IMG/VR virus record: IMGVR_UViG_2778261532_000014
From: a virus
Lineage: Duplodnaviria > Heunggongvirae > Uroviricota > Caudoviricetes
Length of the DNA: 20,500 nucleotides
Direction: 5' to 3' (one strand)
The notes under the pieces are model-generated. The model was not told the DNA's origin. It was given only the letters and a program-made list of their open reading frames with translations, and made no database searches. Position 1 is the first letter of the stretch; each line of letters starts with the position of its first letter. Made by a program: the position numbers and the translations under genes. Below are positions 1,493 to 19,992 of the stretch, one piece after another.

Positions 1493-1520
1493 GCGCCTTG
1501 AATGCAAGGCGCTATTTATC
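1493..1520 (+). terminator. Possible hairpin terminator downstream of int
   Basis: 8-bp stem gcgccttg/caaggcgc with 4-nt loop followed by TATTTAT; weak U-tract, abuts the stop of the minus-strand gene at 1519. Confidence 0.3.
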
Positions 1521-2013
1521 AAGATAGTCTATTCAGATCAGTATTAGGTGTGTTTCTTTTTGATGCAAAGATGGATTTGAATCTTTTTGAGTAACTATCA
1601 AAAAACCATTTTGTATAATTACCTTCAATTTCCTCTAATATTGAATACTTCATCTCATGAAGTTCATTTTTATAATCACACTTTTTGCTTAACAAGTCTA
1701 AAGGTGTTGATCTGATAGATGACAACTGTTCATCACATAATAATTTCTTACCAATCCTTTGTGATAAATGAGACAGCTGCATTTCAATTAATGAGACACT
1801 GGAGGCTAAAAAATTATCCAACTCTAATTCTTTAGTATCTCTAGAAGAGAGCTTATCTAAAACATTATCAAAAAGAGATTCTATTTGCTGACAGATTTTA
1901 TCCTTTTGCCTTGAAATATCATTTCGCTTGAATGCTCTATTGTTGAAATAAGACGCAACAAGCCAACCAATTATAGCAATTACAATACTTGTATAATTAA
2001 CCTCTTCCTGCAT
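1519..2013 (-). CDS. Hypothetical protein with one N-terminal transmembrane helix (third gene of cargo operon)
   Basis: ORF in frame; ATG at 2013 (GTG at 2016 also possible); hydrophobic segment YTSIVIAIIGWLVASYF then charged coiled-coil-like region; overlaps upstream gene by 17 nt, suggesting translational coupling; AT-rich codon usage unlike flanking phage genes. Confidence 0.6.
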   Translation of the reverse strand: MQEEVNYTSIVIAIIGWLVASYFNNRAFKRNDISRQKDKICQQIESLFDNVLDKLSSRDTKELELDNFLASSVSLIEMQLSHLSQRIGKKLLCDEQLSSIRSTPLDLLSKKCDYKNELHEMKYSILEEIEGNYTKWFFDSYSKRFKSIFASKRNTPNTDLNRLS

Positions 2014-2329
2014 CACTCTCTGCCTTATTCAATCGTTCATCAATCAAGGTCTCAATACTCTTAATATCTTTATGAGTATAAGTTAGTTTTTTCTTAAGTT
2101 CGCTTAATGTGTAGCCTTCTACTCGGATCAAGCCACCAAACGCTTCATCAATAAATGAACGCCCATAACGGTTATATCCAGTCAACTCAACATGAACTAA
2201 ATCATACTCTTTGAGAAAGCCTGCCAGATATTTGCGAAAGTTTTCCCCACAGCCTGCCCCATCGTCTGGATAGCGCCCGTAAGGCTTACTGTTGAAGTCT
2301 TTGATAACATTGATATTTTTAGTCTTCAT
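1997..2329 (-). CDS. STAS-like (DUF4325-type, anti-sigma-factor-antagonist-like) small protein
   Basis: 110-aa ORF; AAGG RBS upstream of ATG at 2329; overlaps upstream ATPase gene by 11 nt; sequence pattern (YGRYPDDG...SFIDEAFGGL) recalled as typical of DUF4325/STAS-like proteins that pair with GHKL ATPases. Family assignment from memory, not a search. Confidence 0.6.
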   Translation of the reverse strand: MKTKNINVIKDFNSKPYGRYPDDGAGCGENFRKYLAGFLKEYDLVHVELTGYNRYGRSFIDEAFGGLIRVEGYTLSELKKKLTYTHKDIKSIETLIDERLNKAESDAGRG

Positions 2330-3428
2330 AGCTGACCTTGATGTTCCACTGAATTAAAGTACCTGGTACTTTATGAGTTAACTCATTAATTTTATCACCT
2401 TTCTTATTAGAAAGCTTGAACATACCTAAATTACTGTAAATCCAAAGATTTCCATGTTCATTATTTAGTACTAGAGCTTTAATACTCTTACTTCCTTGAC
2501 CATGTTTATCATTGGCTGTACCGGTTACGTCTCCAATCATAGAAATTGCTATTTTTACTGCATCAGAAACAATACCTACTTTTACTTTAGAGCGCTCTTT
2601 ATAACCTAAACCTATTCTCTCAAGTTCTTCGTTAACCGCAACCTTTAGATCTGGATATTTTGATTTGAGCGTACTCATAAACCATGTCTTTTGCATTACA
2701 GTTTCAGGTATACCAACACCTTCATCATATATAGCAAGATAAAGCTGGTCATGAATTACGTGACATGCAAGCCACCATCGTTTCTCATCATTATTTTTAT
2801 GCGGATAGGCGTGTAAACCAACATTATTTATTGCTTCCTGAACAGCATCTGCATATGTATGTTCTGTTTCAGGTTTCATCTTGTTTTTATAAATTTCTTT
2901 CTGGATGAAATCTATAATCTCATCTCTATATTCTCCTCCTACCCCGCTAATAATGGGCAAGTTTTCAACGTTTTCGAAGACAGGTTTTAATTTTTCGCCC
3001 CGACATAAGGCGACAAGACCTGAGTCTCTTAAAAGCTGATTAACTTTAAAATCTGTTGAAAATAATAATCTGTACGATAAACCTTTACGAATTGAAGTTT
3101 CAACACTGGCATAAAGTATTACTAATGCTGCCATTTTTATTGTTTTTGTATTTGTAAAATCTAAATATAATCTCTCATCAGGATTATATTTTATATTCCT
3201 GACGTGATTTATCGAGTGTAGAGAGTGCGCAAAAAAATTAGGCTTATCTGGTGAATATATTGAAAACTCAGATGGAAACCGAATAAAGGTATTATCTTTT
3301 TTCTTTTGAGATTTTTTTTGTTGACGAAACTGCGAATACTCTTTCCCTTGACGGGAAACACTTCGCTGCCATCTTTTAAAAGCCAGCCTAATTCTTACAC
3401 TTTTTTCCTTATTGGCCTTGTTTTCCAT
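2319..3428 (-). CDS. GHKL-superfamily ATPase / anti-sigma-factor-type Ser kinase-like protein with ~180-aa unknown N-terminal domain
   Basis: 369-aa ORF; AGGGGA RBS; Bergerat-fold motifs: N-box EAINNVGLHAY (SpoIIAB/RsbW-like E-x-x-N-x-x-x-H), G1 box DEGVGIP, G2-like GQGSKS; AT-rich. Confidence 0.8.
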   Translation of the reverse strand: MENKANKEKSVRIRLAFKRWQRSVSRQGKEYSQFRQQKKSQKKKDNTFIRFPSEFSIYSPDKPNFFAHSLHSINHVRNIKYNPDERLYLDFTNTKTIKMAALVILYASVETSIRKGLSYRLLFSTDFKVNQLLRDSGLVALCRGEKLKPVFENVENLPIISGVGGEYRDEIIDFIQKEIYKNKMKPETEHTYADAVQEAINNVGLHAYPHKNNDEKRWWLACHVIHDQLYLAIYDEGVGIPETVMQKTWFMSTLKSKYPDLKVAVNEELERIGLGYKERSKVKVGIVSDAVKIAISMIGDVTGTANDKHGQGSKSIKALVLNNEHGNLWIYSNLGMFKLSNKKGDKINELTHKVPGTLIQWNIKVSYED

Positions 3429-9678: not shown

Positions 9679-10511
9679 ACAGTTTAACGGCAAATAACCG
9701 TTTGTCGCAACAGCTGGTGGTCAGTGTCGCTGAACACCTGTTGTTACGGCATGAATGCAGATTACCAAATCACCTGGCTGTAAGTAACCACAGAGAACTT
9801 TACCTGACTGTGGGGGGCGAGTTGTGCAGGAACTTAACCGCTGGTTTCGTGACGGAAGAGGGCTTTATGTCCATGTTATTCGTTGGGAGCCAGAAACACA
9901 GCGCGTTATCTATCTTCGCAAAGACTACCCGCATGAGTGCTTTAGTCCTTTGTGGAAATTCAGGCGTGATTTTGTTGAGTGTGAAGGACCACCAGCACAT
10001 TGATTCTGCCATTCCGGGACGTTACACTGTTCAGGCACCTTATAAAGCGGGTGCCGGGATTGGCGTCCTGGAAATGTTATCGGCGATATATGACGCGCCA
10101 GCGTCTTTTTTATCGTCTGCGTCTGCGCACCCCCAAATTATGGTGGGCTGGACGGGGGCACCGAAAGGTGCGCCGGTTTCCGATAACGCCGGTTACGCCA
10201 ACCCCGTTCAGTTCACCACCAGCGAAATTGGCGTTTCCGGTGGTGAAGGTAATTCACTGTTATCGGAGGCTGTCATCATGGCTACTGTCCCAGCCCTCAC
10301 TCGTCTGAATGATGAAGACTTACATAAACTCAGTTATGTAACAACTGCACTACGTGCTCTGCGCAAGGTAACTCTTTCGGATCCGCAGGCGCATCAGGTT
10401 CTGGTAGAAACCCTTCTTAACTTGCAGGCTGAACGTATTCGTCTGGCGGATAAGGCTAATTTTCATATTCACCGTCTCCTGAATATCAGCGGAGGGCATC
10501 GTCATGCTTAA
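9675..10511 (+). CDS. Hypothetical protein(s); reading frame ambiguous in the first third
   Basis: 278-aa open frame with ATGA and ATGCTTAA overlaps at both ends; region 10010-10511 has clear coding periodicity; a protein-like alternative frame exists at 9788-10003 next to a G6 run (see findings). Confidence 0.45.
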   Translation: MNSLTANNRLSQQLVVSVAEHLLLRHECRLPNHLAVSNHRELYLTVGGELCRNLTAGFVTEEGFMSMLFVGSQKHSALSIFAKTTRMSALVLCGNSGVILLSVKDHQHIDSAIPGRYTVQAPYKAGAGIGVLEMLSAIYDAPASFLSSASAHPQIMVGWTGAPKGAPVSDNAGYANPVQFTTSEIGVSGGEGNSLLSEAVIMATVPALTRLNDEDLHKLSYVTTALRALRKVTLSDPQAHQVLVETLLNLQAERIRLADKANFHIHRLLNISGGHRHA

Positions 10512-14572: not shown

Positions 14573-14589
14573 TTTTGTGGAGAAAGTTG

Positions 14590-14952
14590 ATGCGTGATAT
14601 TCAAATGGTTCTGGATCGTTGGGGAGCATGGGCGGCGAGTGATAGTTCAGGAGTAGACTATTCTCCTATAGCTGCTGGGTTTAAAGGGCTTCTTCCCTAT
14701 ACAAGCAAAACACGTCAGGCTTGTTCAGATAGTGATGCATTAATTATTGAAGGTTGTCTTGCTCTTCTTAAAAAGCGAAAACCGTACGAGCATTCTTTGA
14801 TTGTGGCCCATTACCTGTATGGCATCTCGAAAAGAAAGCTTGCAAGAGCTCGCAAAAAAGATGAGAAATTGATACGTATAGAGATACAGATGGCTGAAGG
14901 GTTTATTGATGGATGCCTTTCAATGCTGGATGTTAAACTTGAAATGGAGTAG
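14590..14952 (+). CDS. Late-gene antitermination protein Q (QuuD/Q82-like family)
   Basis: 120 aa from ATG 14590 with GGAG RBS; MRDIQMVLDRWGAWAA N-terminus and overall pattern match DLP12 QuuD-type Q proteins as recalled. Confidence 0.85.
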   Translation: MRDIQMVLDRWGAWAASDSSGVDYSPIAAGFKGLLPYTSKTRQACSDSDALIIEGCLALLKKRKPYEHSLIVAHYLYGISKRKLARARKKDEKLIRIEIQMAEGFIDGCLSMLDVKLEME

Positions 14953-14980
14953 AAAAAAGGGCATTTCTGCCCTTTTTAAA
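14953..14980. terminator. Bidirectional Rho-independent terminator between Q and the convergent cassette
   Basis: Hairpin gggca-tttc-tgccc flanked by A6 upstream and T5 downstream; serves the stop of Q (14952) and the stop of the minus-strand gene (14976). Confidence 0.7.
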
Positions 14981-15419
14981 TGTGGGGGAGTATCCAGTTT
15001 ACTTTTCTCCATGTAAAGGCAAAAGTTATTACTGAAATGATAAGAAGAGATAAAGATTCGATAATTAAAATAAATTCTATTTTTTCTCCATGTAACAATG
15101 TCTTTTCATTGGCAAACATTGCTATCAAAGCAATAACGCATGCCGTAATTAAAGATGCACCTGCGGTTAATAGATTTACAATAATAACTTGAAGTATGTT
15201 GTTGTTTTTTAATGCTTTTATTATTCCATTTGAGTTTTCGCTAGCAGCACTAAAAATTGATTTTGTGGCTAAAATAAAACCAAATAAAATACCGGATACA
15301 GTTGAAATAACCCCGGAGGCTGTAAGTATGTCAGCATGCCCCATCTGAGGGATATACCTCAGTAGGAACAAGGTGCAAAAAACACTTACAATCAGGTTTC
15401 TTAAGTATTTCAATAACAT
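14976..15419 (-). CDS. Four-TM small membrane protein (RexB-like candidate effector)
   Basis: 147-aa ORF with four predicted hydrophobic helices; 3-nt gap to upstream gene; very AT-rich. Confidence 0.7.
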   Translation of the reverse strand: MLLKYLRNLIVSVFCTLFLLRYIPQMGHADILTASGVISTVSGILFGFILATKSIFSAASENSNGIIKALKNNNILQVIIVNLLTAGASLITACVIALIAMFANEKTLLHGEKIEFILIIESLSLLIISVITFAFTWRKVNWILPHI

Positions 15420-15422
15420 ATC

Positions 15423-16364
15423 CTATACCTTCTTTTTGCTGATATCGTATTGCTTAAGGTATTCATTGTTATCAATTTTAGCAGAAATCATGGCTTGCAG
15501 AACATCACTATCAGTGCCATAACCATTAACGGTATATATGTTTTTTTCTGAAATGAGTACCTGATCAAGAAGACTTTGTTCAACGGTATTTTTGGGCTGT
15601 GTTACTGCCGCTTTTTTTACAATTCCCGGCATTTTTTCAAGGAGTTCTTTAATACCATCCTTAACGAGATCTGATAAATAACCTTTGACTTTTACTCTCC
15701 CTGATGCACGTCCCCTTAGATTTAACTTGAGACGTGTTCCACCCAGCCCTACCATCATATTTACCAGTTCCTTAGAAAATGAACTATTTAGCTGGTAATT
15801 TGTTGCATCAAAGTTCCTGGGAGCAGCCAGGACAATATCACAACTTCTCAAAGTACTTCCTGTTTCAAGTAGCTCTTTGACGCTCTCTTTTTTCCAGATG
15901 GCTTGGAATGAAAAGTTATTTCCAGGATTACCACTCTGGCTGTAAAGCAGATAAGCTAAATCCGATTCTTTCGGCCCAAGATGATTTTGAGTTAATATTA
16001 AAATATCACTATCGTAATAATATAAAAAATAGGTTCTTTCGACTATGTATTTTTTATCATCTAGTGGTATGTTGTGCTCATTCCAGTGTTCATCACCAAT
16101 ATAAGGAAGGAGATACTCTTCTCGTGAGCATGACATGTAGCCGAAGAAATATTTAGCTTTTGTATCTTTATTTATAAAAGCTATTTTTAACTTTTTATTT
16201 CTATAGATGGTATCAAAATGATTATTCGTAACGGTTACGCAAGTATTATACAGATTTTCAATTGCTTGCTTAGCAACTGAATGGCTGCGGATAGTCCCAG
16301 AACTGCTGGTGTAAAAACCAATTTTAAGTTTTTTTTGTTTCTTTGATTGCGCAATAGTAGCCAT
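15423..16364 (-). CDS. Hypothetical 313-aa cytoplasmic protein (candidate sensor partner of the 4-TM protein)
   Basis: AAGG RBS 7 nt upstream of ATG at 16364; Lys/Asn/Tyr-rich AT-rich composition; no motif I can assign. Confidence 0.7.
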   Translation of the reverse strand: MATIAQSKKQKKLKIGFYTSSSGTIRSHSVAKQAIENLYNTCVTVTNNHFDTIYRNKKLKIAFINKDTKAKYFFGYMSCSREEYLLPYIGDEHWNEHNIPLDDKKYIVERTYFLYYYDSDILILTQNHLGPKESDLAYLLYSQSGNPGNNFSFQAIWKKESVKELLETGSTLRSCDIVLAAPRNFDATNYQLNSSFSKELVNMMVGLGGTRLKLNLRGRASGRVKVKGYLSDLVKDGIKELLEKMPGIVKKAAVTQPKNTVEQSLLDQVLISEKNIYTVNGYGTDSDVLQAMISAKIDNNEYLKQYDISKKKV

Positions 16365-16497
16365 GTTAAACCTTAGTATACTAATAATTTCTTATGGATC
16401 TTATTTTTTATATGGCTTTAATTTAGCAAAAAAAAATTACCGCGGTCCGCAAATTTTATCTTAATCTGTTAAGAGTGGTTACTTCGCCACACAGCTT

Positions 16498-16619: not shown

Positions 16620-16847
16620 ATGTTAACCAGAAGGGAAAAAGACATGCTAAAACAGCAAGATATGACAGAAACCGCCGCCGCAGTCCTTCATTTCTTACCT
16701 GCTGACAAGTGGGTAACGCCACGCATGATGACGAGAACTACCGGAGTAAGCGAAGCCCAGTGCCAGTTAATACTGACTCAGTTAGTTCTGGCGGGTCTGG
16801 CGAAGGATAACGGCGGGTACGGGAATAAATTCAGACGCTGCCAGTAA
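16620..16847 (+). CDS. Hypothetical small protein upstream of methyltransferase
   Basis: 75-aa ORF; start ambiguous (ATG 16620 or 16644); weak RBS. Confidence 0.45.
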   Translation: MLTRREKDMLKQQDMTETAAAVLHFLPADKWVTPRMMTRTTGVSEAQCQLILTQLVLAGLAKDNGGYGNKFRRCQ

Positions 16848-18096: not shown

Positions 18097-18172
18097 GGCC
18101 CTTTAGCTCAGTGGTTAGAGCGAGCGACTCATAATCGCCAGGTCGCTGGTTCAAATCCAGCAAGGGCCACCA
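18097..18172 (+). tRNA. tRNA-Ile2 (anticodon CAU; ileX/ileZ-like; Met not excluded)
   Basis: 76 nt; perfect 7-bp acceptor stem, D-arm GCTC/GAGC, anticodon loop CTCATAA, T-arm GCTGG-TTCAAAT-CCAGC, encoded CCA; close to E. coli ileX as recalled. Confidence 0.85.
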
Positions 18173-18174
18173 TT

Positions 18175-18251
18175 CCGCCACCAGCTCATCTGGATAGAGC
18201 ATCAGCCTTCTAAGTTGATTGTGCGAGGTTCGAGCACCCGGTGGCGGACCA
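18175..18251 (+). tRNA. tRNA-Arg (anticodon UCU, AGA-decoding) with imperfect T-stem
   Basis: 77 nt; perfect acceptor stem CCGCCAC/GTGGCGG, canonical D-arm, anticodon loop CTTCTAA, encoded CCA; T-stem has two mismatches including position 53-61. Confidence 0.6.
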
Positions 18252-19746: not shown

Positions 19747-19992
19747 AAAGTGCACGTCTTGTGCTGGCTGCCATCCTGCTGTTTCTGGTAGTGGCAGTAG
19801 ATTTTGCCGGACGGCTGATGTCGGTTCTGGCTGATGGCGTGCTGGTAGCGATGGTGATGGTTGTTCTCTGGCCTTTACTGCGCAAATCTGAATAACACCA
19901 CACAAAAGGCATCTGTGGGTGCAGGTGTCTTTGACGGGGTGTTTTTTGGTGGGCCGCTGGTGGCTCTTTTTTATTTACAGGAGAAAAAAGGT

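Follow-up and report, generated by a model that had tools for sequence, protein, structure and literature searches.

A probable RexAB-type defence pair of divergent sequence in the post-Q cargo site of a lambdoid Escherichia coli prophage

Introduction

Phage exclusion that needs both genes of a two-gene system, with membrane damage or growth arrest set off by the sensor, has been shown for RexA/RexB of phage lambda, for the pair of the mycobacteriophage Sbash, for RexABpp of Pseudomonas putida and for Sucellos of Vibrio cholerae, in the papers cited for these systems. Divergent RexAB-like systems that escape the Rex models of Pfam have already been published and validated, namely Sucellos, RexABpp and the actinophage systems. 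In this study we describe a two-gene cassette in a stretch of 20,500 nucleotides (nt) from the IMG/VR virus record IMGVR_UViG_2778261532_000014 (hereafter the window, meaning this whole stretch). The cassette, at about 14949–16428 of the window, consists of gene A (313 amino acids, aa) and gene B (147 aa), both on the minus strand. Most likely it belongs, so far without annotation, to the abortive-infection defence systems of the RexAB type that are already known, rather than being a system new in kind.

Sucellos (SclA/SclB), a cassette of the V. cholerae superintegron, is structurally RexAB-like without a match to the Rex families of Pfam; both of its genes are needed, its phenotype is abortive, it has its own promoter, a membrane pore is predicted for SclB, and homologues of the system are found preferentially in prophages (bioRxiv 10.1101/2024.07.02.601686). 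For RexABpp (PP_5643/PP_5644), no depolarisation was detected and no RexA–RexB interaction was seen in two-hybrid assays, and RexBpp caused membrane damage (PMC12894663). The window itself is a lambdoid prophage; in the regions that were compared, which start at the integrase, it is 100% identical to E. coli EC416.

Results

Gene A (15423–16364, minus strand) encodes a soluble, basic protein (isoelectric point 9.25) that belongs to the Pfam family DUF6731 (PF20505; score 41.4 bits, where the cutoff is 27; E 1.7e-10), with nothing else in Pfam above threshold; its name in RefSeq is 'DUF6731 family protein'. With 36 homologues as input, AlphaFold2 gave a model (predicted local distance difference test score, pLDDT, 80) that has RexA as its best structural match and shows the two-domain fold of the RexA/RdgC type. 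Sequence models of the Rex family were silent: neither the gene A protein nor any of 36 family members matched PF15969 (RexA) at E ≤ 10, and in PADLOC (v2.0.0) no model, including that for RexA (PDLC02339), matched the product of gene A or gene B at E ≤ 1, lambda RexA matching its own model at 9e-110 as a positive control. NCBIfam and a sequence search of the PDB likewise gave no match for either protein. Profile comparisons with shallow alignments gave a probability of 0.7% against lambda RexA and below 1% against Sbash gp30.

An exhaustive hidden Markov model (HMM) search of the family found 230 cluster representatives, and a deep gene A alignment of 177 sequences (cluster representatives plus closer homologues; effective number of sequences 6.5) was compared with a profile of four RexA sequences. 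The resulting alignment was collinear and nearly full length (residues 14–307 against 2–270 of 279), with E 9.4e-5 and a probability of 59% in local mode, and E 1e-6 and 83% in global mode. The invariant gene A motif NHLGPKxxDLA aligns onto RexA FGPTTSDLTDFL, and around R219/K221 of RexA the alignment is not residue-accurate. We conclude that gene A is probably a divergent RexA homologue, and that it lies outside the RexA family of Pfam. DUF6731 was mentioned in no paper found in the literature searched. A DUF6731 gene of 87% identity also occurs in the Escherichia phages vB_EcoS-733R5 (ON470608.1, 30253–31191) and vB_EcoS-716R3 (ON470622.1, 15461–16399), where it is annotated as 'portal (connector) protein', an apparent misannotation.

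Gene B (14976–15419, minus strand) belongs to phrog_8552 (E 1.6e-62) and to no Pfam family. Its AlphaFold2 model (pLDDT 83) has four long helices (H2–22, H28–62, H75–102 and H114–146), hydropathy also gives four, and their spacing is close to that of RexB. As the positive charges cluster at the N-terminus, in the central loop and at the C-terminus, an in-in topology is predicted, which is the topology described for RexB and Sbash gp31. Within the gene B family, H28, LFGF, G87, C94 and W137 are invariant down to 24% identity. The layout is thus that of the RexB type, a four-transmembrane (four-TM) protein of about 145 aa directly downstream of a RexA-type gene, and gene B is a candidate RexB-like effector of the inner membrane.

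The sequence relation of gene B to RexB was followed with several methods. None of 14 partner proteins (homologues of gene B) matched PF15968 (RexB) at E ≤ 10, and gene B did not match the PADLOC RexB model (PDLC02340), which lambda RexB matches at 8.6e-61. In a single BLASTP comparison, lambda RexB and gene B were 33% identical over 46 aa (E 0.021); the N-terminal RexB motif that the first-pass annotation, made from the letters of the window, had likened to gene B proved to be real, with ...YLLFRHYIPGV... of lambda RexB aligned to ...TLFLLRYIPQM... of gene B. A first profile test against the RexB family gave a probability of 0.7%, and a shallow-profile comparison with Sbash gp31 less than 1%. 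After distant partners were added, hhalign gave a score of 25.2 (E 0.0019, probability 14%) for residues 15–79 against RexB 20–83, above all 80 of 80 block-shuffled controls (maximum 22.0). The RexB HMM matched partner proteins of the Pseudomonas phage AUS531phi (E 1.5e-5) and of a metagenomic locus (L025; 1.6e-4), BLASTP of RexB against an Aeromonas partner protein gave 7e-4, and an HMM-versus-sequence test for homology to RexB was not significant. In every case the similarity to RexB fell in one region, made up of TM2, the central loop and the last part of TM1. A full-length RexB match of 87.7%, obtained with hhalign without composition correction, was discarded, since the shuffled controls reached nearly as high a score (40.5 against 40.7).

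Foldseek against viral models (BFVD) placed a 165-aa Sbash protein at rank 2 for gene B (probability 1.00, TM-score 0.55/0.50), which we matched by length to the RexB-like effector gp31, the sole 165-aa coding sequence within the first 50 kb of Sbash (77 genes); lambda RexB was not in the BFVD top 50. The signs of sequence homology between gene B and RexB are weak but recurrent, and the homology is unproven. Weak matches to Pfam MotA_ExbB (E 0.024) were seen for two of the 14 partner proteins; a search for structural support gave nothing, and a link of RexB-type effectors to the MotA/ExbB/TolQ proton channels is possible. Many PF15968 RexB homologues (P0070, P0077, P0088–P0099) are named 'biopolymer transporter ExbB' by NCBI.

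The pairing of the two genes is constant, since a homologue of gene B, a small membrane gene, follows the DUF6731 gene in 12 of 12 distinct loci examined (E. coli, Xenorhabdus, Vibrio, Pseudoalteromonas, Aeromonas, Thiococcus, a metagenome, a Pseudomonas phage and a Vibrio tectivirus-like element); a scan of genome contigs yielded three loci only. In an Aeromonas prophage and in AUS531phi, a cI-type repressor gene is followed on its own strand by A and then B, and a cro-like gene points the other way, which is the cI-rexA-rexB layout of lambda. These cI-adjacent relatives tie the DUF6731 lineage to classic rexAB biology. The pair also adjoins integrases and occurs in non-lambdoid islands. Canonical rexA-rexB pairs were themselves seen beyond obvious cI contexts in Xenorhabdus, Pantoea and Dryocola (L019, L021 and L022), with DinI or a tail-fibre fragment as neighbours, and in Sodalis (L020) a RexB homologue has no called RexA gene upstream.

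The position of the cassette is sharply delimited. In BLASTN comparisons, homology of the flanks to related prophages ends where Q ends, at 14948, and restarts at 16425–16436, and these boundaries are the same for compared loci with different cargo and for those with an empty slot. Just 17 nt separate the flanks in an Stx2a phage, whose slot is empty. Elsewhere the slot holds, on the opposite strand, a KAP-family NTPase of 443 aa (locus L016, 4885–6216), a 339-aa protein without a Pfam domain (L015, 4883–5902) or an unrelated overlapping pair of 286 and 182 aa without a Pfam domain (L013, 1460–2855), and in a further case a 44%-identical version of the A/B cassette. The cassette is present in 25 of 5,426 complete E. 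coli genomes, many of these prophages coming from pig enterotoxigenic E. coli strains, and in phage cdtI (orf53/orf54); most of the Q module is found in about 600 E. coli genomes and the right flank in about 2,970. Because the contents of the slot vary and the cassette is rare among genomes, it is accessory cargo (a moron) in a post-Q site that is delimited by recombination and holds cargo between Q and the late region, and not a conserved core of this phage family, a point that the first-pass annotation had left to be checked. The NTPase, the 339-aa protein and the 286 plus 182-aa pair are candidate unknown systems.

The left flank of the site is the Q antiterminator gene (14575–14952, plus strand; PF06530, E 5.2e-52; 'antiterminator Q family protein' in RefSeq), which is convergent with the cassette. 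The first-pass annotation had described an AT-rich opposite-strand pair directly after Q, with a soluble protein followed after a 3-nt gap by a four-helix membrane protein and a bidirectional terminator at the end, and had likened it to RexA/RexB; each of these observations was borne out, and the likeness was supported. On its placement where late genes normally begin, one correction applies: the pair is located between Q and the conserved flank of the late region, not inside the late operon. The GC content of the cassette is 0.340, against 0.515 in the left flank and 0.501 in the right. At the Q-proximal end, a bidirectional intrinsic terminator (14954–14977), a perfect 10-nt inverted repeat with a 4-nt loop (AAAAAGGGCA-TTTC-TGCCCTTTTT) bordered by an A-run on one side and a T-run on the other, sits between the convergent stop codons and overlaps that of gene B; as flank homology ends at 14948, it is counted as cassette-specific DNA. 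A consensus terminator scanner did not flag it.

The junction of the two genes reads TAG-GAT-ATG, and a Shine-Dalgarno sequence of gene B, GAAGG (15428–15432, minus strand), was read directly within the 3' end of gene A; the 3-nt spacing of stop and start codons is consistent with translational coupling. Gene A has the ribosome-binding site AAGG (16374–16371), 6 nt ahead of its ATG. Upstream lies a cassette-specific leader with a presumed promoter (16365–16428, minus strand), which reaches to the right boundary of the cassette DNA (16425–16436); a promoter scan found no minus-strand consensus sigma-70 promoter in these 64 bp, and the candidates seen by eye were all poor. Just outside this boundary, in the conserved flank, a consensus scan showed a weak terminator-like hairpin with a T-run (16440–16452, minus strand) that could shield the cassette against leftward read-through.

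Purifying selection acts on A and on B, with ratios of nonsynonymous to synonymous polymorphism (pN/pS) of 0.14 for A and 0.27 for B against a copy of 82% and 70% identity, respectively, a comparison without indels in which synonymous sites are saturated. Genes A and B are real genes, and the overall evidence led us to reject both a reading as spurious open reading frames (ORFs) and a holin or lysis function of the cassette.

Several other features of the window were recorded. Adjoining the site on the right and preceding a DNA methylase gene, a conserved 75-aa ORF (16620–16847, plus strand; phrog_331), called by RefSeq in a 67-aa version, has a faint match to a Ren-like exclusion protein (E 0.019) and is kept in most related prophages, including the Stx2a phage with the empty site. 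A second AT-rich island (GC 0.30–0.36) lies beside the integrase at 1519–3428 (minus strand) and consists of three abutting genes of 369 aa (2319–3428), 110 aa (1997–2329; DUF4325/STAS-like domain) and 165 aa (1519–2016); none has a PADLOC match, and the island resembles a further moron or candidate defence operon of uncharacterised kind. In the early region, Rfam identified the Hfq-binding RNA isrK (10035–10111, plus strand; 63.7 bits) and, directly after it, the C4 antisense RNA (10136–10223, plus strand; 82.8 bits), which suggests antisense control of an antirepressor of the P1/P7 type in this lambdoid prophage. Downstream of the DNA methylase gene lies a tRNA pair (18097–18251, plus strand), one with a CAT anticodon, assigned to Met by ARAGORN and to Ile by RefSeq, and one Arg-TCT. 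A third ARAGORN call, a 92-nt tRNA-Arg(TCT) at 19752–19843 (plus strand), did not reach the gathering threshold in Rfam and may be a degenerate or false tRNA.

Discussion

Taken together, the evidence makes it quite probable that the cassette is a moron complete in itself, whose two components form a divergent abortive-infection or exclusion system of the RexAB type. If lambda RexAB, Sbash gp30/31, P. putida RexABpp and Sucellos are taken as models, the gene A protein would most likely be a dimeric, non-specific DNA-binding sensor of infection, its basic character being an indirect sign, and gene B an oligomeric effector in the inner membrane. Upon infection, A would trigger B, and the membrane would be compromised through ion leak, depolarisation or permeabilisation; RexBpp, for its part, damaged the membrane without detectable depolarisation. 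Growth of the infected cell would then stop and the superinfecting phage would be blocked, giving the expected anti-phage phenotype. The pair would be expressed from the prophage in the lysogen as a single translationally coupled operon, served by an upstream region and a terminator of its own. As a matter of speculation, the convergence with Q might lower expression of the cassette during lytic growth of the prophage itself; in phi80, reduced expression during lytic growth has been reported for the opposite-strand Tai gene (PMC11364771).

A Rex-related pair could instead mainly serve the cycle of its own prophage, with A binding DNA and modulating either the passage from lysogeny to lysis or the activity of Q and the late promoter, and with B as an accessory membrane factor. 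Lambda RexA acts on the bistable switch without RexB, biasing it towards lytic growth (PMC11077077), and both the convergence of the cassette with Q, where it abuts the late-region flank, and the location of the pair next to cI in the immunity region of two phages would suit such a role. However, since the same site is empty or filled with unrelated cargo in close relatives, the cassette is dispensable for the phage cycle; the pair is also found beside integrases and in non-lambdoid islands, and its rarity in genomes and its obligate membrane partner fit accessory defence. Own-cycle and defence roles are, moreover, not mutually exclusive in lambda. We therefore regard a mainly own-cycle function as unlikely.

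A likeness of fold with a different function, and with a mechanism unlike that of Rex, is also quite unlikely in our judgment. The pair would then act in membrane superinfection exclusion, as a toxin-antitoxin-like pair, or as a recombination regulator similar to RdgC whose membrane neighbour is there by chance. The RexA fold is common to RdgC, IML3, CHL4 and CENP-N, none of which is a defence protein, and it is unproven that the membrane partner is homologous to RexB; both points speak for this alternative. Kiwa (four-TM KwaA plus KwaB) or another catalogued two-gene membrane-effector system, which the first-pass annotation had named as an alternative and which shares a small four-TM protein beside a soluble protein of about 300 aa, is hardly credible and effectively refuted by the lack of a PADLOC match at E ≤ 1 (the presence of Kiwa models in that release was not separately checked), by the lack of a DUF4868 match in Pfam, by a gene order reversed relative to the cassette and by RexA as the best structural match of the soluble protein.

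The RexAB-type reading provides a functional hypothesis for the uncharacterised family DUF6731 and accounts for two genes labelled 'hypothetical' in phage cdtI and in some 25 E. coli prophages that have been sequenced. As PADLOC and the Rex models of Pfam miss the DUF6731 lineage, Rex-type systems are under-counted by tools built on them. A broader proposal, conceivable although we lean against it, is that DUF6731 and its four-TM partner are an ancient sister lineage to RexAB, comprising about 230 clusters (at 50% identity) that fall mostly in Gammaproteobacteria, and were captured repeatedly at cI-adjacent, integrase-adjacent and post-Q slots, the post-Q site being an undescribed defence hotspot of lambdoid phages with the Q stop codon as its left edge and the conserved A-run/hairpin as its right. 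If so, the other occupants of the hotspot would be candidate new systems, and convergence against Q could give self-immunity by transcriptional interference in lytic growth. In any case, a precisely bounded post-Q site is a simple handle for mining more prophage-borne systems. Because lambda Rex is mechanistically unresolved after 70 years, a second, divergent pair native to E. coli would also be useful for comparison.

Compared with lambda RexA/RexB (PDB 8TWQ), the cassette proteins have about 13–15% identity. The lambda proteins have their own Pfam families (PF15969/PF15968) and PADLOC models, none of which the cassette matches, its soluble protein being in the separate family DUF6731, and homology of lambda RexB to gene B is not established. 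Unlike lambda rexAB, the window pair lies outside the cI operon, in a post-Q cargo site convergent with Q, and has its own leader and terminator.

The actinophage systems, Sbash gp30/gp31 and gp44/gp43 of the Gordonia phage CarolAnn, combine a Rex-like sensor with a four-TM effector and are proven in defence, their hosts being Actinobacteria. In Sbash gp31, the central cytoplasmic loop is functionally critical, and gene B has a conserved K-rich loop at the same place; gp30, with a RexA/DUF4747 domain and 372 aa, is longer than gene A, and neither Sbash protein has detectable sequence similarity to gene A or B. RexABpp, compared by description, comes from another host and lineage than the cassette. 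The published description of Sucellos fits the cassette closely; the DUF6731 family includes Vibrio members, and Sucellos is an integron cassette whereas the window pair is prophage cargo. Whether or not the cassette falls in the Sucellos or RexABpp family, the kind of system is known.
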